From: Candidatus Bathyarchaeota archaeon
GTDB lineage: Archaea; Thermoproteota; Bathyarchaeia; Bathyarchaeales; Bathycorpusculaceae
Direction of reading: 5' to 3'
Assembly (NCBI GenBank): GCA_963775685.1
Contig: CAVZJV010000014.1
Location: 64,001 to 128,000 of the forward strand
Length of the DNA: 64,000 nucleotides
The notes below the pieces were generated by a model. That model did no database searches and was not told where the DNA came from. It worked only from the letters and a program-made list of their open reading frames with translations. Below are positions 12,346 to 24,977 of the stretch, piece after piece (within the stretch, counting starts at the first letter, position 1; the number at the start of each line of letters is the position of its first letter). A program made the position numbers and the translations under genes.

Positions 12346-12849
12346 CTTCTGCCAATTTTCGTCTCAGAGGTCTTTTACAAAAAGAAAAAAGGGAAGAATC
12401 TGCAGAAAAGTGAGAATTGTACATCGCCACCCTGATGGTTCCGAATGACTCCAGCTGAAACTTATTCCATGCTAGACGACGGCCACATTTGCCCCATGCT
12501 TAACTTTTAGGGTTCAGAGTTTTTCAATACATCAAGTAAACTTAAAGCTTCTGGAAAAGCCAGATCACCTTAATATGCGCCTTCCTATAAAAACGCTAAA
12601 ACAAGGGAACTGCAAAAGCGCGATGAGCTTCTTTTTAACAAAGTTAAAACAAGCCAAGATAAAAAAAAACAAAAAGGATTTGTTAGATATTCATAACCAA
12701 CTGTGTTAAAACGCTTAATATGATACTTGTCCATTCCTGATTTGTGTGTTGTTGTCTCTACACAGTCACGTATGTTAATACGGCCATGTTTCTAGATATT
12801 TCCAGTAAGTCAATCAGTTACTTGGGTCTCTGATAATTTTGGTTTGGAG

Positions 12850-13023
12850 GTGATTTTCATTACGGAAAAAAATAAGAAAGGGGTGTTTGTCGCTGAGCAG
12901 AAGAAAAAGAGACGCGAAATAATTCAAGAAGGTAAAAAGCAAGTGGCTATTCCGCCAGATGTTGGAGATGTAGAAAAGAAGGCTTTAGCCCAAACAGGCG
13001 ATGATGCAACTTCAGGATGGTGA
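12850..13023 (+). CDS. Small unannotated protein (about 57 aa) ending in TSGW
   Basis: Open frame (M)IFITEKNKKGVFVAEQKKKRREIIQEGKKQVAIPPDVGDVEKKALAQTGDDATSGW*, GGAGGTG at 12846, T-run downstream. Confidence 0.6.
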   Translation: MIFITEKNKKGVFVAEQKKKRREIIQEGKKQVAIPPDVGDVEKKALAQTGDDATSGW

Positions 13024-13182
13024 AAAGAATCTGTTTAAAGATCCACTCTTTTTTAATTTCTTATGACAATCAGTCCATAATCATTACCATTTTATTACAT
13101 AAAACCACAATTTAACTAATTTTTTTTAGATACACAAAACTTTTATTGCCATAACAACAAATCTTAGCAGGAGGTTTAGCGC

Positions 13183-13440
13183 TTGGAAGAAGTTATAATT
13201 GAAATAGGGCAAGTCATACATTTCTTCTCAAAAATCAACGTTGCCATAGTCGAATTAACGTTGCCCCTCTCCATCGGCGACCGCATCCTCATAAAAGGTC
13301 CCTCAACAGATTTTGTCCAAATCGTTACTTCGATGCAGATAGATCGCAAAGAAATTAAAAGAGCCGAAGGCGGACAAAGTGTAGGATTGAAGACGATTCG
13401 GCAGCCGCGGGAAAAAGACGTTGTTTATAAGCAACTTTAA
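13183..13440 (+). CDS. Translation elongation factor-like beta-barrel (U32 peptidase C-terminal-like) small protein
   Basis: IGQVIHFFSKINVA...LSIGDRILIKG..TDF.Q.V.SMQID...AEGGQSVGLK, with GGAGG RBS. Confidence 0.8.
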   Translation: MEEVIIEIGQVIHFFSKINVAIVELTLPLSIGDRILIKGPSTDFVQIVTSMQIDRKEIKRAEGGQSVGLKTIRQPREKDVVYKQL

Positions 13441-14567
13441 GGTATGATTTCAGCGCCGTTATATTTTAGGTAATCAAAGTCTTTTATCCCAACGGTTCCT
13501 TTCCCTATTAGTCTTCGGATACGTGGAACTTCGCTTGCTACCGCTTTGATTAGTTGTTCTACTGTGTAGCAAACTTTATTGTACGCATCGTTACTCCAGC
13601 GTTTGGCTATGTTTGTGTAGAGGCATCTGCCGCCGCAAATATCTAGAATTTTGCAATCCACACAGGGTTTTTCGTTAACAAAGATTTTTTCAAGTTTCAA
13701 AGGGTTGGTATCTTTTATGTGCCCAAGATAGTATTCTTTCATCCCCCACATTGTTGGGCATGGAATAATGTATCCGTCAGTTTGGATAGCGTAATTTATC
13801 CAGCCGCCTCCGCAACGCAGCAAGCAATCTTTTTCTTCATGTAAAAGCGAGTTGGCTATGCCCAAAATTGGGTAGAGCTTAAGCACAGTGCCCTCCTCTT
13901 GGATTTGGTCAACCCAAAAATGCACCAGCTTCTCAATGCCTGGAATGTAGCTGGTTTTGGTCCACTCTTCAAAGTTGCGTCTTTGATAGTCATTGCCCCA
14001 AAAACCAGCATTCAGTTGCCAATGAATCGAAGTAAACGAAAAATCAGGGTTATCCAGGAGATATCTGACTTGTTTTTCTATGTCGGTTTGCTCCATTATG
14101 GTCATGCGAGCAATCAATTCTCCAGCAAACCCATTTTTCCTGATTAATTTTAGGTTGTTGACGACGTTCTGGTAAGTTCCTGCCCCGCGGTAGGCATCCG
14201 TTAAAGTTTCTTGTCCATCAATAGAGACAAGGATGGTGTGGAAACGGTTAACGTATTTTGGCTCCAGTTTGTCAAGAAGTAAACCGTTTGTTTGCACCAT
14301 GTACTGTTTAGGTGATACTTTATCCATGATTTGCCTAAGCTTATCTATCTGCAGCAGTGGTTCTCCACCATAGAAGGTCAAAACGCAATCAGGGTCCTGG
14401 CGGCAGAACTTATCAAGCAGCGCTAAATCGTAGCTGAGCCTACGTGGCAAATCATAATCAACTTCAATGTCGTCGCCAAAGTCCTCATCGAAATCATCAA
14501 GGCTCTCGCCAAAGCAGTATTTGCACTGCAGGTTGCAGTCACTTGTCAATATGACATGGAAGAACAT
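13437..14567 (-). CDS. Radical SAM/SPASM protein (AF0577/TIGR04084-like putative peptide-modifying family)
   Basis: CNLQCKYC, YGGEPL, SPASM cysteines CGGG...IIPCP...CVDCKILDICGGRC. Confidence 0.88.
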   Translation of the reverse strand: MFFHVILTSDCNLQCKYCFGESLDDFDEDFGDDIEVDYDLPRRLSYDLALLDKFCRQDPDCVLTFYGGEPLLQIDKLRQIMDKVSPKQYMVQTNGLLLDKLEPKYVNRFHTILVSIDGQETLTDAYRGAGTYQNVVNNLKLIRKNGFAGELIARMTIMEQTDIEKQVRYLLDNPDFSFTSIHWQLNAGFWGNDYQRRNFEEWTKTSYIPGIEKLVHFWVDQIQEEGTVLKLYPILGIANSLLHEEKDCLLRCGGGWINYAIQTDGYIIPCPTMWGMKEYYLGHIKDTNPLKLEKIFVNEKPCVDCKILDICGGRCLYTNIAKRWSNDAYNKVCYTVEQLIKAVASEVPRIRRLIGKGTVGIKDFDYLKYNGAEIIP

Positions 14568-14589
14568 GCTTTAGATGAGCACATGGGTT

Positions 14590-14605
14590 GTTTAATAGTA
14601 TTTTT
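14590..14605 (-). promoter_or_regulatory. BRE/TATA-like promoter for the radical SAM gene, overlapping the MFS stop codon
   Basis: AAAAATACTATTAAAC lies about 25 nt upstream of the ATG at 14567, the geometry of a leaderless transcript. Confidence 0.5.
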
Positions 14606-15905
14606 CTGCAAGTTCCTCAGCTTTCTTATATTCTTCACTTTTTTCTTGCTCGGGCTTGTTCTTTTGATGTTTCTTGGTTTTTTCCTCTTCGTTCTGAGCA
14701 ATTCTCTGAGCCTTCTCAATATACTTTTTCAGCTCCATATCTTTCATGCGTTTTTCAGGCAAGGTTTCAGGCGCATACAGCAAGGGTAAGACAGCTAAGA
14801 AAAGAAATACGCTTGCAAAAGAGAATATGGGTATTTGACTTATGTCAGGTACATAGAATGCAAAAACTTTGGTTAGGAAACTGGAGAATACATAAGGTAA
14901 AGCGCCTAAGAAGTATAATTTATCGCTGTTTCTGGCTTGAGATAGGTCGCCCCATATTATGAGCAGAAATACTATATTGAATATTCCCCATGCAATTCCG
15001 TCTGATACCACGTAAAAGTATCCAGCCAAGTTTATATCTGGAAAAAGTCCTAAGATAGCATATCCGATTCCTAACATAATGAAGCCTACAATCGTTAAGC
15101 GTTTGCGACCGAAAAGGTCAGCAACAAATCCGCATGTGACAGCAGTGACTGCCATAATGATGTTTTCTAAAACGTAAATTAGAAAATTGTAAGTTGGACC
15201 AGATCCTAAAAGGTGGTTCTGAATTGGAACCGTCATATAATTTACAAGGGACACCATACACCATGAAACAAAGTAGAAAATAAACGACCTGTTAGACAGA
15301 ATATCTTTGAATTTAACCTTGTAAGTTTCTTTGCTACTTGGTTCTTCCACATTAAATCCACAAAAGACTAAAAATCCAAATAATCGTATAGCGGAAAGAA
15401 CGACGCAAGCTAAAACAACATCGCTTATTATAAATGCGCCAAGCACAGAGAAAAGCAAGCCCATTAACAGAAGAGTAATCCCGCTAATTTTTGCACGGTT
15501 CTCTACCATAGTGTGGCTGGAGAAATACCCCATAACTACAGGCATTCCGACTCCAAAATAGGCTCCAAAAACACTTGAAATCACAAGAGTGCCAGTTACG
15601 CTTGATAGATCCATTGCGAGAGGTAGAAATGAAAGAAAAACACCGCTTAACATCCATAAACTGAGGAAGTTAGTTCGTTTTTTTAATTTGTCAACTGCAA
15701 ATGAACCTACGAATGCTAAAATTGCTATTGAAACTGCGTTCACGCCAAAAACGATAAGTGTTAAGGGGCCAGTATTCGGATCTATTTTATCCGTTAGAAT
15801 CTTGAGGGTTTTGAAAACTAGCAAATACCAAACAAAGGCGTTTCCTACTAAGAAAACATTTGTCGTAGTTAGTTTTAGAGTTGGCTTAACATCTCCCAGA
15901 GGCAC
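14592..15905 (-). CDS. MFS-like 12-TM membrane protein with charged cytoplasmic tail
   Basis: About 12 hydrophobic helices, motif A GFVADLFGRKR, PETL after the last helix and a K/E-rich tail. Confidence 0.85.
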   Translation of the reverse strand: MPLGDVKPTLKLTTTNVFLVGNAFVWYLLVFKTLKILTDKIDPNTGPLTLIVFGVNAVSIAILAFVGSFAVDKLKKRTNFLSLWMLSGVFLSFLPLAMDLSSVTGTLVISSVFGAYFGVGMPVVMGYFSSHTMVENRAKISGITLLLMGLLFSVLGAFIISDVVLACVVLSAIRLFGFLVFCGFNVEEPSSKETYKVKFKDILSNRSFIFYFVSWCMVSLVNYMTVPIQNHLLGSGPTYNFLIYVLENIIMAVTAVTCGFVADLFGRKRLTIVGFIMLGIGYAILGLFPDINLAGYFYVVSDGIAWGIFNIVFLLIIWGDLSQARNSDKLYFLGALPYVFSSFLTKVFAFYVPDISQIPIFSFASVFLFLAVLPLLYAPETLPEKRMKDMELKKYIEKAQRIAQNEEEKTKKHQKNKPEQEKSEEYKKAEELAEKYY

Positions 15906-16005
15906 TTGCTGGACATCCTTAAAGTTGTAACTTTCTAGGTGTTTTTGATAATTAAGTATTAAGGATTGGTAAAATTGATTTGAAATATAGTTTATGTAGG
16001 TAACC

Positions 16006-16046
16006 TTTTAAGCATATTTGTACAACACATCTACTTCGAGGAAGGT
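16006..16046 (+). promoter_or_regulatory. TATA-like box and RBS for peptide gene 1
   Basis: TTTTAAG at 16006-16012 and GAGGAAGGT at 16038-16046, ahead of the ATG at 16051. Confidence 0.6.
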
Positions 16047-16050
16047 TGCT

Positions 16051-16095
16051 ATGAAGGCAAACAACAAAGTAACTCGTTCAAGTGGATGGGTTTAA
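16051..16095 (+). CDS. 14-aa candidate precursor peptide 1, MKANNKVTRSSGWV
   Basis: Has ATG, RBS and TATA. Its C-terminal SSGWV is identical to peptide 2. Its stop overlaps the convergent prenyltransferase stop. Confidence 0.75.
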   Translation: MKANNKVTRSSGWV

Positions 16096-17108
16096 GAAAA
16101 CCCGTTCGCAAAAAAAGCAAAGGGAGCGGAAAGCAATATTTTTAGCTCCTCCCATTTTTCTTCTTCTAAGCTTTTCTGTAAGATCCCAACAATACAATTA
16201 GCTGATACGTTTAATTCTTCAAGAAATTCCTGAACTTCAGGGGTCTCAAAAACTAAATCGATTATTTTTTCTTGTGCAGAATTATCAGATAAGTCCTGGC
16301 TCAAAAGAGGAAGAAGCATCTTTCTAGTTTGCAAATTCTGCAACGCATAGATTAAAGGTAAAGGTAGGCATCCATTTTTCAGCCGATTAGCCACTTCCAA
16401 AGGGTCAAAAATGTCTGCGCACTCATCAGATACAAGCGAAACAACCCCGTAACTTCTACCAAATTCACCTAACTCTTCCACCAAATCTTGTTCTGCCCCC
16501 CCAACGATGGCACCGATTTTCATAGTTAATTCAGGAACAACTGCCTTCAACCTGATTATGTCATAAAATTCATTTGGAGACAAATCCAACCGAGCTTTCA
16601 AGCTAGCCTCTAAGGTTTCTGCCATGGAAATCTCCAATATTGCCTCAGATATCAAACTTCTAATTTGCTTGCCCTGACCTTTGGGAAGCTTATCGCATTC
16701 ATTATGCAATTGCGTTAACCCTTCAGCCAAAAGAATGTCGCCAGCTAATATTGCTGCGGTTTCGCCGAATTTGCCAAAGACAGTTGGCTTGGGACCTTTA
16801 AAGGTTGACTTATCGATAACGTCATCGTGTAAATCAGCGGCTCCAGTTATTAGTACGATTGCTTTTCCAAAAGGAATTGCCTGTTTAACGTTTCCTCCTA
16901 CTGCTTTGCATGAGATGACTATAAGTGCAGGAAAAACAGGCATGGTGTTATGAAGAGTTATTTTTGAGAAGTGCCTTAGTGATTGAGAAATAATGCTCTT
17001 GTCTTTGTTTGCTGAGATTATTTGCTGTCTCGCTTGTTTTAGGGCAAGACCACCGTTTTCCCTAAAAATCTTTTTCATTTTCCGAATTAGAGCCTGATTG
17101 GAGGGCAT
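16092..17108 (-). CDS. Divergent polyprenyl synthetase-fold protein, candidate ComQ-like peptide Trp prenyltransferase
   Basis: FARM LHDDVID and AILAGD are retained. The RRG loop is replaced by FKG, KT by KA, and the second Asp-rich motif is degenerate (SDECAD). Confidence 0.8.
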   Translation of the reverse strand: MPSNQALIRKMKKIFRENGGLALKQARQQIISANKDKSIISQSLRHFSKITLHNTMPVFPALIVISCKAVGGNVKQAIPFGKAIVLITGAADLHDDVIDKSTFKGPKPTVFGKFGETAAILAGDILLAEGLTQLHNECDKLPKGQGKQIRSLISEAILEISMAETLEASLKARLDLSPNEFYDIIRLKAVVPELTMKIGAIVGGAEQDLVEELGEFGRSYGVVSLVSDECADIFDPLEVANRLKNGCLPLPLIYALQNLQTRKMLLPLLSQDLSDNSAQEKIIDLVFETPEVQEFLEELNVSANCIVGILQKSLEEEKWEELKILLSAPFAFFANGFS

Positions 17109-17150
17109 TTGTATCAGGGTTTAATTGTTTTGAGTAAATATTTGGTTTTT

Positions 17151-17160
17151 GGAAAAAAAT
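17151..17160 (-). terminator. Oligo-T terminator after peptide gene 2
   Basis: Minus strand ATTTTTTTCC about 20 nt after the stop at 17182. Confidence 0.4.
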
Positions 17161-17181
17161 GAGGCGTTGGAAAGGGTTTTT

Positions 17182-17241
17182 TTATACCCATCCCGATGAG
17201 ATTGGTTTACCGCGGATATTTTTGCCATTTTTGCTTACCAT
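17182..17241 (-). CDS. 19-aa candidate precursor peptide 2, MVSKNGKNIRGKPISSGWV
   Basis: GAGGTG RBS 7 nt upstream of the ATG and 25 nt downstream of the protease stop. Shares C-terminal SSGWV with peptide 1. Confidence 0.8.
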   Translation of the reverse strand: MVSKNGKNIRGKPISSGWV

Positions 17242-17266
17242 ATTTTTTCACCTCACATTTGCTAAT

Positions 17267-18118
17267 TTAATTTAAGAAACTTTGTATCCAGGTTAAGATA
17301 CTCTGTGTATCTATCCTAGTGTGATATGTTATTCCTGCACAGTTTGCATTACGTACGTACGCGTTAATGGCAAGGACAATGTCTTGAGTGCCGCCGTTAT
17401 AGATTACTGGGCCGCCTGAGTCTCCAAATGCCACGCCGCCTTTGCCTTGGCTGGGGTTGGCTGTTAATTTGAGGTATTTGTCACTTCCAGCAAAGTTCCC
17501 AGATACTATTTTGGCTTGTGCGGAGTTGCATGATAATGTTCCAACCAACGAGTTAACAACGCCGTTGTCTTTGGGAGTCGCTTGGAATTGAAGACCATAA
17601 CCTACCTCCTTCAAGATAGTTTTATTATCCAACATATCAGAGAAACCTGCTCGAGGTAAAGCTGGAAAATCTTCAACACCTGCAACTGCTTGAACAAGTT
17701 TTATTAATCCTATGTCGCTTGTTTCAAATTCGTTATTGCCTGAAAAAGAGGGGTTATACAGCGGATAGATTATTGGAAAACCATCATAAATTGTATTTGC
17801 ACCATAATAGGTGATTTTTCCCTTCTCAAGAGTATAGCTAATTGGTCCCTTATCAAAACAAACGCTGACTGCTTGCACACCGACCAGACTGTGACCTGCC
17901 GTCACCATAACTGTTGACGAAATCAAGAAGCCTGAACAATAACCAATCGGGTTAGTTTTCGCTTCGTCACTAAAAAGCACGACTACCCCAGTATACGGAG
18001 TTGAATCTGGGCGAATGTTTCCTGTTATTCCGTATACTGTGCCAGTAAATAGAGCCAAAGATGCCAAGATTGGCAGGATGGTTAACGTGATAGCTTTGGT
18101 TGTTTTCAAATTATCCAC
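17267..18118 (-). CDS. Secreted S1 (chymotrypsin/trypsin-like) serine protease
   Basis: Signal peptide and catalytic triad motifs TAGH, DIGLI and GDSGGP. Confidence 0.9.
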   Translation of the reverse strand: MDNLKTTKAITLTILPILASLALFTGTVYGITGNIRPDSTPYTGVVVLFSDEAKTNPIGYCSGFLISSTVMVTAGHSLVGVQAVSVCFDKGPISYTLEKGKITYYGANTIYDGFPIIYPLYNPSFSGNNEFETSDIGLIKLVQAVAGVEDFPALPRAGFSDMLDNKTILKEVGYGLQFQATPKDNGVVNSLVGTLSCNSAQAKIVSGNFAGSDKYLKLTANPSQGKGGVAFGDSGGPVIYNGGTQDIVLAINAYVRNANCAGITYHTRIDTQSILTWIQSFLN

Positions 18119-18274
18119 CTTATCTGACTTACACTTGTATCGTAAGACGTAATATATAAACGTCCTGTGTAAGATGCCTCAGCCGAGCAATGCCCAACAA
18201 AACGACAGTCCAACACAACTACACATGCCAGCAAGCAAAACTCTTAAAAGCCAAAGCTATAATCACAAGGTTTC

Positions 18275-21157
18275 ATGAGCCAAACCAAGCAAATAGAGCA
18301 GAAATGGCGAGAGAAATGGGAAGCCGCCCACCTTTTCGAAGCTGACCCTGACCCGAAAAGACAGAAAAAGATGGTAACCTTTCCCTACCCATATATGAAT
18401 GGCCCATTGCACGTTGGACACACTTTCACAGCTTCACGAGTGGATGTTTATGCTCGGTTTAAACGTATGCAGGGTTACAATGTACTTTGGCCTTGGGGTT
18501 GGCACTGGACAGGTCAACCTTTGCTTGGAGCCAGTCAACGCGTAGCCCGGGGTGATGAAGCATTCATTAAAGTCTTAAGAGAAATCGATGGAGTGCCTGA
18601 GTCGGAACTCAAAAAATTCGTTGACCCTCTCTACATGGCTCAATACTACACAAATGAAGGTCGAATAGCTGTCAAAAATATCGGGTTTTCAGTAGATTGG
18701 CGACGCGAATTTACTTCCATAATGCCAACTTACCAGAAGTTCATAGAGTGGCAATACAAGAACCTTAAAGAAAAAGGCTACGTTACACGTGGCACACACC
18801 CAGTGGTTTGGTGCCCTAAAGACAAGAGTCCAACAGGAGACCATGACCGCCAAAGCGGCGAAGGTATCACCGCCGAAGAATACACACTAATAAAGTACAA
18901 GCTAGATGAAAAAACGTTTTTGCCAGCAGCAACTTTCCGTCCCGAAACCATCTATGGCATTACTAACCTGTGGATTAACCCCGATGCAGTCTATGTGGAG
19001 GCATACGTTAACGGCGAAAAATGGATCGTCAGCCAAGAAGCAGCAGATAAACTCAAAGAGCAGGAAAGAAAAGTTGAAGTAAAACGCAGTTTTCAAGGCA
19101 AAGAACTCATAGGCAAATGGTTTGAGAATCCAATCACAAAACTCAAGTTTCCTATCTTGCCCGGCTGGTTTGTCGACCCTAAAACCGCGACTGGCGTGGT
19201 GTACAGCGTTCCAGCCCATGCACCCTACGATTGGTTAGCGCTTCGAGACCTACAGCTGAAACCCGAAGTCCTTTCACAGTTCGGCATGGGCCCTGACGAA
19301 GTTATGCAAATTAAGCCTATCTCAATTATCAAGGTGGAAGGATATGGCGAGTTTCCAGCAGTTGAAATCGTTGAGAAAATGGGCATAAAAGACCAAAACG
19401 ACCCTAAAGCTGACCAAGCCACCAAAGAACTGTACAAAAAAGAATTTCACGGTGGCGTGCTGAAACCCAATTGTGGACCATACGCTGGAAAAACTATCCG
19501 AGAAGCCAAAGACATTTTGATAGTTGACTTCCTCAAACTTGGCGTAGCAGACTTCATGTATGACTTAGCTGAACCCGTAGTTTGCCGCTGCATGACGCAA
19601 TGCATCGTAAAAATTCTTTCTGACCAATGGTTCCTAAACTACTCTGATCCTGAATGGAAAGAAAAAGCCAAAGAAGTTGTCGCACAAATGACGATTTATC
19701 CCGATTCCGCAAAACAGAACTTCTATACTGTTATTGATTGGCTTCGTGAGTGGGCTTGTGCAAGAACCACGGGTTTTGGAACTCCGCTCCCGTGGGGCAA
19801 AGGTTGGATAATTGAAACGCTCAGTGACTCAACTGTGTATATGGCCTTTTACACAATAAACAAGCATATAAAACAGAACAACATTAAAGCTGAATTGTTG
19901 ACACCAGAAGTTTTCGATTTTCTTTTCTACGGTAAAGGCAATGCAAACGAACTTGAAATCACTACTGGATTAAGTGCCAATTTGCTCAATGACATGCGAA
20001 CTGAATTTCTTTACTGGTATCCGTTTGACTTGCGAAATTCTGCAAAAGAACTCGTACCAAACCACTTATCCTTCTGTATTTTTCACCATGCTGCGCTTTT
20101 CTCACCTGAACACTGGCCCAAAGCAGTAGGCGTTAATGGTATGCTTATGATTGAAGGACAAGGAATGCACAAGAGCAAAGGAAACTTTATAACAATGAAA
20201 GGTGCCGTGGAAAAATACGGTGCTGACGCAACGCGCTGCGGATTGCTGTTAGGCGCCGAAGGCATGGATGATCCCGATTGGCGTGCTGAAAACGTAAGCG
20301 ACTTGCAAAGTAAGTTTGAGGCATTAATTGGGTTTACAAGCGGCATAATAGCTTCAGCCAAAAACCTGGAAGAATCGGACCTAGAACGGTGGCTTACTAG
20401 TAAGATTCAATATCGAATAAGAGAGGTCACCGCAAGCTTAGATGTACTTAAAACCCGAACTGCCCTGCAAGTGGCGTTGTTTGAGACTTGGAATGATCTG
20501 CGCTGGTACATCCAACGAAAAGGCAATACAGAAGCCAAAGCGCTGGGTGATGCGGTGAAGGTTTGGTTAAAGATGCTTACGCCTTTTGCGCCGTTTATTT
20601 GCGAGGAGCTTTGGAGCCAAACTGGCGAAGAAGGATTTATCAGTATTGCAAAGTGGCCAGTCTTTGATGCGGGCAAGCTTGATGTAGCCGCTGAAGAGCA
20701 GGAGACTCTAATTACAGATCTAATGACTGACACAACAAACATCGTAAAAGCCACGAAGATATCGCCAAAACACATATGTTTCTATACGGCTGCACCATGG
20801 AAATGGCAAGTTTACCTCAAAATCATAGACAAAACTATTGTTGGCGAAGTAAAAATCAACGAGTTAATGAAGGAATTCGCCGCCGACAAAGACCTAAAAC
20901 CACGCATGAAAGACATAGCGGCCATGGTTCCAAGAATCACTAAGGCTTTAACTAAAGTTTCATGCGAACGCAAATCCAACATGAAGCAAATCAAAGTGAT
21001 CAATGAGCAGGCGATTTTGAATAGTGCTGTGGCGTTTTTGGGACAACGCTTCGCTGCTAAAGTAACCATTTTTAGAGAAGATGACATCGAACGTTTTGAC
21101 CCAAAGAAACGTGCAACGATGGCTATGCCGTATCAACCAGCAATCTACATCGATTAG
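18275..21157 (+). CDS. leuS: Leucine--tRNA ligase (archaeal type)
   Basis: FPYPYMNGPLHVGH, TFRPET, VPAHAPYD, and a KMSKS variant GMHKSKGN. Confidence 0.97.
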   Translation: MSQTKQIEQKWREKWEAAHLFEADPDPKRQKKMVTFPYPYMNGPLHVGHTFTASRVDVYARFKRMQGYNVLWPWGWHWTGQPLLGASQRVARGDEAFIKVLREIDGVPESELKKFVDPLYMAQYYTNEGRIAVKNIGFSVDWRREFTSIMPTYQKFIEWQYKNLKEKGYVTRGTHPVVWCPKDKSPTGDHDRQSGEGITAEEYTLIKYKLDEKTFLPAATFRPETIYGITNLWINPDAVYVEAYVNGEKWIVSQEAADKLKEQERKVEVKRSFQGKELIGKWFENPITKLKFPILPGWFVDPKTATGVVYSVPAHAPYDWLALRDLQLKPEVLSQFGMGPDEVMQIKPISIIKVEGYGEFPAVEIVEKMGIKDQNDPKADQATKELYKKEFHGGVLKPNCGPYAGKTIREAKDILIVDFLKLGVADFMYDLAEPVVCRCMTQCIVKILSDQWFLNYSDPEWKEKAKEVVAQMTIYPDSAKQNFYTVIDWLREWACARTTGFGTPLPWGKGWIIETLSDSTVYMAFYTINKHIKQNNIKAELLTPEVFDFLFYGKGNANELEITTGLSANLLNDMRTEFLYWYPFDLRNSAKELVPNHLSFCIFHHAALFSPEHWPKAVGVNGMLMIEGQGMHKSKGNFITMKGAVEKYGADATRCGLLLGAEGMDDPDWRAENVSDLQSKFEALIGFTSGIIASAKNLEESDLERWLTSKIQYRIREVTASLDVLKTRTALQVALFETWNDLRWYIQRKGNTEAKALGDAVKVWLKMLTPFAPFICEELWSQTGEEGFISIAKWPVFDAGKLDVAAEEQETLITDLMTDTTNIVKATKISPKHICFYTAAPWKWQVYLKIIDKTIVGEVKINELMKEFAADKDLKPRMKDIAAMVPRITKALTKVSCERKSNMKQIKVINEQAILNSAVAFLGQRFAAKVTIFREDDIERFDPKKRATMAMPYQPAIYID

Positions 21158-21361: not shown

Positions 21362-21769
21362 TTAATGGCTCACTCTAGCGGGTTCTTCATGGTTCTTAAG
21401 CTTCTCTTCTAAAAGAACCAGCAATTCCTGAGGTTTCACGGGCTTAACCAAATAAGCGTCTGCGCCTTCATCAAGAGCTTTAACGCCAGTTTCAAGTGAC
21501 GGGAACCCCGTAATCATTATTTTGACGGTGTGTTGGAGTTGCTTTTTGAGTTTCGCTAATAACTCGGTGCCATCCATATCCGGAAGTCTGATGTCTACCA
21601 ACGCTAAGTCAAAATGGTCGTTTCCCGCTTTTTCTATGGCTTCTTTACCTGTTTCCGCAGTTTCAATCTCATAACCGCTTTTTTGGAGAATGCGTGTGAA
21701 GGTTCGAAGTATTGATTTGTCATCGTCAACAACAAGTATTGTTTTTTTATGTGCAGCCAATTCTAACAT
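21362..21769 (-). CDS. Single-domain response regulator receiver
   Basis: ILVVDDD, DIRLPDMDG, MITG, YLVKP. Confidence 0.93.
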   Translation of the reverse strand: MLELAAHKKTILVVDDDKSILRTFTRILQKSGYEIETAETGKEAIEKAGNDHFDLALVDIRLPDMDGTELLAKLKKQLQHTVKIMITGFPSLETGVKALDEGADAYLVKPVKPQELLVLLEEKLKNHEEPARVSH

Positions 21770-23699: not shown

Positions 23700-24977
23700 T
23701 TGAAACTAATCTTCGTTGCAATAGACGGTATGGGCGATTTACCTATCGAATCTTTAGGTAACAAAACTCCTCTTGAAGCAGCAGAAACTCCCAACATGGA
23801 TGCGCTTGCCAAGGCGGGAAAAACTGGTTTAATGTATTCGGTCAAGAAGGGTGTCGCGCCTGAGAGCGATGTTGCTGTTATTTCACTTTTAGGCTATGAC
23901 CCCTTCAAATACAGCACAGGCAGAGGTGTCATCGAAGCATCTGGCGTTGGCTTGAACATGCAGGATGGAGATTTAGCGTTGCGTTGCAATTTTGCTACTT
24001 TAGGCGCGGGCAAAACTATTCTTGACCGACGAGTAGCTCGAACTCTGAGCACAGAGGAAGCGAATGAGCTAACTGAAGCCGTCAACAAAGAAGTGAAACT
24101 CAACTCATACCCAGCCACTTTTGAGTTTCGCAATACTTTGGGCCATAGGGCTGTTTTGCTCATTAAGAGTAAAGCTAAACCGCTATCAAGCAACATAACC
24201 AACAGCGATCCCGCCTACATAATAGTTAACGGCATTGGCGAAGCCAAATCAGATGTCGAGATGGTGCTTAAAACTTGTGAACCAACCGAAAAAACAGAAG
24301 CCGCGAAAGTCTCCGCCAGGTTGGTTAACGAGTTTATCGAAAAGTCACATATATTTTGGGAAAATCATCCTATTAACGTAAAGCGTGCCGCGGAAGGCAA
24401 ACTCAAAGCAAACGTAGTTTTGACCCGAGATGCGGGGCACTTGCTTCCTAAATTCTTCAACATAAACGAACGCTACCATGTCAACTTTGCCTGCTTAGCG
24501 GACATGCATGCTGAGCGCGGAATCGCTCAACTGGCTGGTATGGAGTCGTCGCTGCTTCCGCCTCCATCAGGAAATTTGCAGAAAGACTGCGAAGTCAGAG
24601 TAAAAGCCCTCCTTGAAGCCCTGCCAAAACACGATTGCTTCTATATTCACCTCAAAGGACCCGACGAACCAGGACACGATGGCAACTGCAACTTAAAAAC
24701 CCAGATCATCTCTGCTATCGACAAGTACTTCTTTGGTCCATTGCTTAAACAGATATCTTTAGAAGACAACCTCCTTTGCATAACCACTGACCACGCGACG
24801 CCCTGTACCTTGAAAGTTCACAGTGATACACCCGTTCCGATGCTCATCTCAGGCGACCACGTTAGCAGCGGCAAAACAGACAAGTTCTGCGAGAAAGAAT
24901 GTGCAAAAGGCAGCCTTGGCACTCTAGAACGCGGATGCGAATTAATGCCAAAACTCATGCAGATACTAAAAAAATAA
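23700..24977 (+). CDS. apgM: 2,3-bisphosphoglycerate-independent phosphoglycerate mutase (archaeal)
   Basis: IDGMGD, TPLEAA.TPNMD, PESD, DEPGHDG, TDHATP. Confidence 0.9.
   Translation: MKLIFVAIDGMGDLPIESLGNKTPLEAAETPNMDALAKAGKTGLMYSVKKGVAPESDVAVISLLGYDPFKYSTGRGVIEASGVGLNMQDGDLALRCNFATLGAGKTILDRRVARTLSTEEANELTEAVNKEVKLNSYPATFEFRNTLGHRAVLLIKSKAKPLSSNITNSDPAYIIVNGIGEAKSDVEMVLKTCEPTEKTEAAKVSARLVNEFIEKSHIFWENHPINVKRAAEGKLKANVVLTRDAGHLLPKFFNINERYHVNFACLADMHAERGIAQLAGMESSLLPPPSGNLQKDCEVRVKALLEALPKHDCFYIHLKGPDEPGHDGNCNLKTQIISAIDKYFFGPLLKQISLEDNLLCITTDHATPCTLKVHSDTPVPMLISGDHVSSGKTDKFCEKECAKGSLGTLERGCELMPKLMQILKK

Follow-up and report, generated by a model that had tools for sequence, protein, structure and literature searches.

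Micro-ORFs around a synthase-like gene

The 64,000-nucleotide (nt) stretch analyzed here, hereafter the window (positions 64,001 to 128,000 of contig CAVZJV010000014.1 in the Candidatus Bathyarchaeota archaeon assembly GCA_963775685.1), carries a gene for a trans-isoprenyl diphosphate synthase (trans-IDS)-like protein accompanied by two very short open reading frames (micro-ORFs) whose predicted products end in the same five residues, SSGWV. Micro-ORF 1 (peptide 1; 16051-16095, + strand) specifies 14 amino acids (aa), MKANNKVTRSSGWV, consisting of a basic leader, an Arg, and the core SSGWV before a TAA stop. Micro-ORF 2 (peptide 2; 17241-17182, − strand) specifies 19 aa, MVSKNGKNIRGKPISSGWV, with a basic leader, IRGKP, and the core ISSGWV, and also stops at TAA. 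The shared core is coded TCA AGT GGA TGG GTT in peptide 1 and TCA TCG GGA TGG GTA in peptide 2, and both differences are synonymous; a sequence-only reading of the window had described the two ORFs at these coordinates with these codons and synonymous changes, and the window sequence agrees with it in full. The gene order on the − strand is protease, peptide 2, synthase-like gene, major facilitator superfamily (MFS) transporter, and radical S-adenosylmethionine (rSAM)/SPASM protein, with a leucyl-tRNA synthetase (LeuRS) gene as the divergent neighbor. Micro-ORF 1 lies on the opposite strand, in the interval that separates the synthase-like gene from the MFS gene, and converges on the former so that the stop codons of both overlap by 4 nt.

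The paired core was assessed in a six-frame scan of the whole genome (3.06 Mb in 14 contigs; 6,119,720 positions). SSGWV followed by a stop occurs exactly twice, both times at this locus, against 0.094 occurrences expected from residue frequencies, and the number expected within 1.2 kb of a given copy is 7e-5. The match between the two peptides is beyond chance. Two further frames end in xSGWV, one at window positions 24105-24182 and one at C14:1276134; the former runs antisense within a 425-aa gene and was set aside as a chance occurrence.

Both micro-ORFs are accompanied by sequences resembling expression signals. The segment 16006-16045 (+ strand), which contains blocks conserved across nine aligned orthologous regions, is the putative promoter and 5′ leader of micro-ORF 1, with a TATA-like T/A box at approximately 16006-16019 and a Shine-Dalgarno (SD)-like GAGGAAGG at 16038-16045. 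The peptide 1 orthologues in these nine regions have in common a T/A-rich, TATA-like box about 35-45 nt upstream and a GGAG-type SD, in keeping with the earlier proposal that peptide 1 has a TATA box of its own. An in-frame alternative start farther upstream would extend peptide 1 to 25 aa; the 14-aa form is favored because its SD and ATG are conserved in the orthologues. A conserved block of about 30 nt (15950-15982, strand not assigned) stands out as conserved columns in nine orthologous versions of the divergent spacer that separates micro-ORF 1 from the MFS gene; several relatives have a short inverted repeat inside it, and it is a candidate regulator-binding site.

Peptide 2 is preceded by the SD-like GAGGTGA (− strand, 17254-17248), and in nine aligned regions its orthologues have their start codon (ATG, TTG, or GTG) in one shared place, 7-8 nt downstream of GGAGGTGA. 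These orthologues sit directly behind the protease stop codon and have T-rich stretches after their own stop. In the window, a run of seven T (17153-17159, − strand) comes after micro-ORF 2 and before the synthase-like gene, where it may serve as an archaeal terminator or attenuator. The placement of peptide 2 behind the protease gene, also part of the sequence-only reading, was thus found to be one of direct adjacency, with an SD before the micro-ORF and a T-run after it.

Conservation and codon evidence in relatives

The related loci comprised the best 80 public relatives, 74 of which are labeled Bathyarchaeota, Bathyarchaeia, or Bathycorpusculum. An automated filter accepted convergent ORFs, 7-32 aa long, that had three or more K/R, no more than two D/E, and a Trp among the last four residues, and whose stop lay about −12 to +70 nt from the stop of the enzyme gene. 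A micro-ORF passing this filter was present in 56 of the 80 loci. Under a nearly identical filter the background was 48 of 1733 long frames of the window's own genome, the true locus counted in, and control loci of canonical geranylgeranyl diphosphate synthase (GGPPS) genes gave one pass in 20. Inspection by eye of the 24 loci that had not passed and of the best convergent frames, with criteria refined after the data had been seen and hence less rigorous than the automated count, found a Trp-ended basic micro-ORF in 69 of 78 evaluable loci (two of the 80 could not be evaluated); five of the 78 have a similar ORF lacking Trp, and four have none at that place, three of these four having an upstream one.

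The peptides of the relatives begin with a stretch rich in Lys and Arg, carry an (I/V/P)(I/L/V)R motif, and have a short tail that contains Trp, as in the examples MKKPIRPIRGYWW, MKAKKPLRPIRLGWA, MSKKQKIVRFGGW, and MKVNTKIIRSTGWH, and they occupy the same two positions as in the window, either convergent right after the synthase-like gene or upstream on its strand. The earlier suggestion that SSGWV itself is the conserved unit did not hold. What the relatives keep is the basic leader, then (I/V/P)(I/L/V)R, and then a tail of four to five residues that usually includes G-W, the residues around G-W depending on the species; the tails of the archaeal peptides terminate in GW or GGW or have a single residue after GW. 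Two subclades have an intact micro-ORF and SD with ACG (L021-L023, L124, L127, L130, and L132) or an ATA-like codon (L004, L005, L066, L067, L069, L072, and L082) in place of the ATG of their relatives, which may reflect near-cognate initiation or decaying copies.

Several features of the codons support translation under purifying selection. The ratio of nonsynonymous to synonymous polymorphism (pN/pS) was 0.43 for nine peptide 1 orthologues and 0.34 for eight peptide 2 orthologues, and 10 of 13 third codon positions varied versus 6-8 at the first and second positions. The conserved Arg before the core is written CGT, CGG, CGA, or AGA in the orthologue sets, and also AGG and CGC in further relatives; the Gly codons in the sets are GGA, GGC, or GGT. 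The last five codons of the two peptides were then compared in the 16 genomes having both: 40 codons were identical, 30 synonymous, and 10 nonsynonymous, with five of the last group coming from a single genome (L003), in which the two tails are of unequal length and the comparison was out of register. When this genome is set aside, the 75 codons of 15 genomes divide into 40 identical, 30 synonymous, and 5 nonsynonymous. Amino acid identity between the two cores averaged 4.38 of 5 when both came from one genome and 1.80 of 5 when they came from different genomes; not one of 10,000 shuffles of the partners attained the observed identity. The relatedness of the genomes inflates this test, but the effect is large. 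The tails themselves vary by species, including SSGWV, QAGWI, STGWH, WSGWL, VVGWL, and TFGGW.

The tails of both genes are kept alike within each genome by selection at the protein level and not by gene conversion. The paired core first seen in the window holds across the lineage, since matching of cores within genomes recurs in the relatives. The claim of the sequence-only reading that selection acts on a translated C-terminal core is strengthened by the low pN/pS values, by the retention of Arg and Gly through several codons, and by the matched cores. Genes for peptides of 10-20 residues fall under the length limits of standard gene callers, and the present case illustrates how synteny and codon evidence together can reveal them.

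The synthase-like enzyme and its gene neighborhood

The gene between the two peptides (17108-16092, − strand) encodes a 338-aa trans-IDS-like protein (PF00348, E 2.3e-22), for which we propose the role of a putative peptide prenyltransferase. In an alignment of 27 members of its family with three canonical GGPP synthase paralogues of the same lineage, D95, D96, and D99 of the first aspartate-rich motif (FARM; DDxxD) were invariant in all 27 members. By contrast, GGKRxR, the RRG that follows the first motif, the FQ that precedes the second, and the GK lid were lost in 27 of 27 and kept in the three canonical paralogues. The GK lid region shows a six-residue deletion followed by a conserved NECLPLP, and the second aspartate-rich motif (SARM) is altered to (D/E)(E/D)FxD. 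The full canonical trans-IDS set (both DDxxD motifs, GGKRxR, RRG, KT, FQ, and the GK lid) is not found in the enzyme, and all NCBIfam synthase equivalogs scored far below their cut-offs, the best at 95.6 bits versus 468. With the trans-IDS-like peptide Trp prenyltransferases (ComQ, PalQ, StheQ, and ChrPC-P) the enzyme shares the all-alpha trans-IDS fold, the retained DDxxD, a lost or repurposed isopentenyl diphosphate (IPP) site, and an adjacent gene for a ribosomal peptide whose Trp is at or near the C-terminus. A separate canonical GGPPS is encoded elsewhere in the genome (L041). The protein has the polyprenyl-synthase fold, and with its IPP motifs lost it appears unfit for chain elongation.

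The AlphaFold2 model of the enzyme (predicted local distance difference test [pLDDT], 93.9; predicted template modeling score [pTM], 0.92) adopts the trans-IDS fold. Its best match in both sequence and fold is the canonical archaeal GGPPS 1wy0 (E 2.6e-16; template modeling [TM] score 0.79 in Foldseek), which shares the first DDxxD but keeps the IPP-site and lid motifs that the window enzyme has lost altogether. Ord1 (PDB 9v4g, 9v4h, and 9v4i), a free-Trp farnesyltransferase, was also matched; it is among the better PDB sequence matches (E 1.4e-14), has the same fold (Foldseek ranks 31-44), and likewise lacks GGKRxR, whereas the acceptor proposed for the archaeal enzyme is a peptide. Canonical GGPPS structures match the enzyme as well as or better than Ord1 does. 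Because peptide prenyltransferases are not told apart from ordinary synthases by the fold search, it gives the fold only. A retained donor site together with a missing IPP site is the pattern described for ComQ, PalQ, StheQ, and Ord1 (PMC13290415; PMC10853753; 10.64898/2026.08.29.745113).

The enzyme's sequence cluster carries no name. The enzyme profile retrieved 505 cluster representatives at E<=1e-30 among 1.84 billion. At E<=1e-40, it had a match in 79 of the 301 genomes sampled from the class and in 62 of the 152 that are of high quality, so the family is not rare. The matches are concentrated in some families of the class, such as f1 (36/48) and f7 (12/12).

Upstream of peptide 2, a trypsin-fold serine protease of 283 aa with a hydrophobic N-terminus is encoded at 18118-17267 (− strand; PF00089, E 1.8e-11). 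Downstream of the synthase-like gene follow an MFS transporter of 437 aa, a putative exporter (15905-14592, − strand; PF07690, E 1.7e-12), and a 376-aa rSAM/SPASM protein of TIGR04084 (14567-13437, − strand; E 5.3e-92, 308.4 bits versus a cut-off of 225). The latter is a putative second peptide-modifying enzyme, and one JGI/IMG cluster member of it is named 'putative peptide-modifying radical SAM enzyme'. These two genes, which the sequence-only reading had not named, are conserved parts of the cassette: 71 of the 77 loci that could be evaluated have a same-strand MFS gene downstream, and a TIGR04084-like rSAM gene lies in the flank, which is short, in 51 of the 80. Among the 71 loci evaluable upstream, LeuRS is the neighbor in 35 and the protease in 14, and all 14 of the latter have the upstream peptide, which also occurs without the protease in eight further loci. 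The locus brings together the elements of a generic cluster for a ribosomally synthesized peptide with post-translational modifications (RiPP), namely putative precursors, putative modifying enzymes, a protease, and a putative exporter. As for the linked membrane histidine kinase (ComP) and response regulator (ComA) of a ComQXPA system, a Pfam scan of 11 ORFs of at least 110 aa each between 6049 and 23490 found no kinase and, beyond LeuRS, just a stand-alone receiver domain.

One genome of the same genus (L145; G128:C146, 5991-6499) lacks the synthase-like gene and keeps LeuRS, a 510-nt spacer, the MFS gene, and the rSAM gene. In this single case, the spacer has no typical micro-ORF on the expected strand. 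All that it contains is a frame, not basic in composition, that ends in GGGWYIF and may be a remnant.

Proposed function and competing explanations

The association of paired micro-ORFs with a synthase-fold enzyme, an exporter, and a candidate second modifying enzyme leads us to a reading to which we give an even chance, in which the peptides are RiPP-like precursors whose C-terminal Trp would be prenylated before processing and export, in a manner analogous to ComQ, PalQ, and StheQ. On this reading, the micro-ORFs would be real, translated genes for the very short precursors of a RiPP-like cassette found in many Bathyarchaeia. Each peptide would comprise a Lys/Asn/Arg-rich leader ending in (I/V/P)(I/L/V)-Arg and a tail of 4-9 residues, with G-W-V at its end in the window. 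The trans-IDS-like enzyme would hold a prenyl diphosphate donor at its Mg2+/DDxxD site and transfer the prenyl group to the Trp in the C-terminal region of the peptide, a role suggested by genomic context. The rSAM/SPASM enzyme might add a second modification, the basic leader would be removed at or near the conserved Arg, possibly by the secreted trypsin-fold protease where one is present, and the MFS protein would export the small cationic or neutral prenyl-peptide. The two genes would be expressed separately, peptide 1 from its own promoter and peptide 2 by co-transcription behind the protease gene, and would deliver the same species-specific core.

All characterized trans-IDS-like peptide prenyltransferases target Trp (PMC13290415; PMC10853753; 10.64898/2026.08.29.745113), and the archaeal cassette resembles PalQ/PalX of Paenibacillus alvei in placing the gene for a trans-IDS-fold enzyme beside that for a ribosomal peptide substrate (PMC10853753; PMC13290415). 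A C-terminal Trp is required by PalQ, which favors peptides ending in GW or GGW, exactly as many archaeal peptides do, whereas the window peptides carry one residue after the Trp, an extension that abolishes PalQ activity (PMC13290415; PMC10853753). PalX has an NHLP leader domain, is cleaved after residue 72, and has DNVRRFFW as its core, in contrast to the archaeal precursors, which are 10-25 aa long and have a simple basic leader. Before its second Asp-rich motif, PalQ retains Q197, which the archaeal family lacks, and the PalQ cluster has a histidine kinase, of which there was none among the ORFs scanned here (PMC10853753; PMC13290415). In StheQ/StheX of Sphaerobacter thermophilus, a ComQ-family enzyme with an adjacent peptide, the modified Trp is second from the C-terminus, as in SSGWV, and the single FARM-bound Mg2+ and the pseudo-SARM of StheQ count as further likenesses (10.64898/2026.08.29.745113). 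StheX, however, has at least 69 residues, and StheQ is bacterial (Chloroflexi) and keeps Q212 and N215, unlike the archaeal pseudo-SARM (D/E)(E/D)FxD, which is without the Gln (10.64898/2026.08.29.745113).

The third comparison is with the Bacillus subtilis pheromone system, in which the trans-IDS-like ComQ prenylates a Trp near the C-terminus of the small secreted peptide ComX (PMC13290415). Species- or strain-specific tails are common to ComX and the archaeal peptides. ComX shows pherotype polymorphism, its precursor is about 55 aa long, and the order of genes in Bacillus is comQ, comX, comP/comA. The archaeal cassette differs in having MFS and rSAM genes, two precursors, one of them convergent on the enzyme gene, and no kinase among the ORFs scanned.

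Several observations weigh against the proposed prenylation. The tails in five of the 78 loci lack Trp (ends LYAV, LRAI, ILAV, LYGI, or TLPF; loci L089, L094, L100, L134, and L136), and the enzymes beside them look equally intact, with DDxxD and the family motifs kept. Ten of the 69 Trp-ended ORFs have no ATG, GTG, or TTG start. By eye, the S1 pocket residue of the protease is not the Asp of trypsin, so cleavage after Arg is not implied. The Gln one turn before the second Asp-rich motif, a hallmark of Trp recognition in ComQ, PalQ (Q197), StheQ (Q212), and Ord1 (Q216) (PMC13290415; PMC10853753; 10.64898/2026.08.29.745113), is absent: Q216 of Ord1 aligns with Leu in the window protein, and the position is G, T, S, L, M, or I in the 27-member alignment. 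Because this hallmark is not conserved, the family is regarded as an independent offshoot and not as a member of the ComQ family. Finally, the searches were anchored on the enzyme gene, so the link between enzyme and peptide arises partly by construction, and the rSAM or MFS protein could be the true functional partner.

The most tenable of the competing explanations, though one we still consider unlikely, takes up this last point and treats the peptides mainly as rSAM/SPASM substrates, for example for a C-C cross-link from the conserved Arg or Lys to the Trp four residues on, while the synthase-like protein would make or handle an isoprenoid with no transfer to the peptide. Cross-links of this general kind occur in streptide-type RiPPs, which contain a Lys-Trp ring, and in cyclophane RiPPs. 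The presence of the TIGR04084 gene in the flank of 51 of 80 loci speaks for it, as do the sub-cut-off scores of the protein to peptide maturases including DynA and the cyclophane-forming YhhB, and by eye an rSAM gene was seen in only one of the five Trp-less loci versus 49 of the 69 Trp-ended ones. At least 26 of the 77 loci evaluable downstream, however, have no rSAM gene in their short flank, and L145, a single case, keeps both the MFS and rSAM genes where the synthase-like gene and a typical micro-ORF on the expected strand are missing. Loss of the IPP site with retention of the donor site would, moreover, call for a new acceptor.

Ranking below it, and in our view improbable, is the explanation that the micro-ORFs specify unmodified small basic proteins, acting as a subunit or regulator of the enzyme or MFS protein or binding membranes or nucleic acids. 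The peptides are indeed extremely basic, the K/R-rich segment with P-I-R is conserved more widely than the Trp, and the Trp-less versions are readily accommodated. Identical species-specific cores in paralogues nevertheless fit a released product or a recognition element better, and a secreted protease and an exporter, which occur alongside, are in line with processing and export. That the ORFs go untranslated and their conservation reflects a DNA or RNA element (promoter, terminator, or antisense RNA) between the synthase-like and MFS genes is highly improbable: peptide 1 does lie inside a regulatory spacer with conserved noncoding blocks, and ten orthologues do lack a canonical start codon, but one peptide motif recurs in two genomic contexts, on either strand and in different codons, it is mainly third positions that vary (10/13), the Arg is kept through both codon families, and RNAalifold returned an energy of 0.00, that is, no conserved structure, for peptide 1 on either strand and for peptide 2 on the given strand. 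No Rfam family was found at E<=1 in window positions 13000-19000.

Prenylation of the RiPP-like precursors would work here as in the ComQ, PalQ, and StheQ systems, but the enzymes belong to a separate lineage, the precursors are far shorter, their two genes co-evolve, the context is one of MFS and rSAM genes, and the host is an archaeon. Bathyarchaeia are an abundant, largely uncultured lineage of sediments and soils. To our knowledge, peptide prenylation by synthase-fold enzymes has so far been described only in bacteria. Within these, the StheQ preprint of 2026 presents Chloroflexi as the first extension beyond Firmicutes (10.64898/2026.08.29.745113), and our comparison suggests that archaea, too, may make small lipid-tagged peptides like the bacterial ComX and PalX. 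If so, the cassette would extend peptide prenylation to another domain of life, its enzymes would accept very short peptides and be useful for peptide lipidation, and a testable handle on cell-cell signaling or antagonism in Bathyarchaeia would be at hand. No ComQ/PalQ-like or TIGR04084-linked peptide system in Bathyarchaeia or other archaea was found among the top-ranked literature hits (the best 10-15 of 29-256 per search); Fig. S6 of the PalQ report and the sequence-similarity network in PMC13290415 could hold archaeal nodes.

A bolder extension, which we offer as improbable speculation, is that Bathyarchaeia may secrete species-specific prenylated peptides of four to six residues that act as signals (pherotypes) or, being cationic lipopeptides, as weapons. 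Their precursors (10-20 aa) would be the shortest known for RiPPs, and the enzymes making the peptides would form a branch of the IDS family that evolved independently, with two differently regulated precursor genes whose cores are kept identical by selection. Were this signal or weapon reading true, the cassette would be the first peptide-pheromone-like system described in archaea.

Some features around the cassette and elsewhere in the genome deserve mention. A stand-alone receiver domain (21362-21769, − strand; PF00072, E 5.7e-30) is encoded just beyond LeuRS. The window's own genome has a second, more divergent cassette (L034; G000:C14:1061138-1064827), in which the synthase-like gene is split into overlapping frames of 136 aa and 234 aa by an apparent frameshift near the DDxxD region; an MFS gene follows the split gene, and a trypsin-like ORF lies upstream on the other strand, as judged by eye. 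An 85-aa ORF (13183-13440, + strand) converges on the rSAM gene with a stop overlap of 4 nt. Three close relatives were checked for a homologue and had none, and the ORF looks like an insertion between the rSAM gene and a 59-aa acidic ORF (12844-13023, + strand). This acidic ORF ends in TSGW, is situated some 400 nt past the rSAM gene, and converges on the operon. In one relative (L147, 2258-2437; E 2.3e-13), a homologue of the 59-aa ORF that ends in TQGW abuts the rSAM stop codon, and none was found in two other close relatives (L146 and L148); the 59-aa ORF may be a third, ComX-sized precursor.

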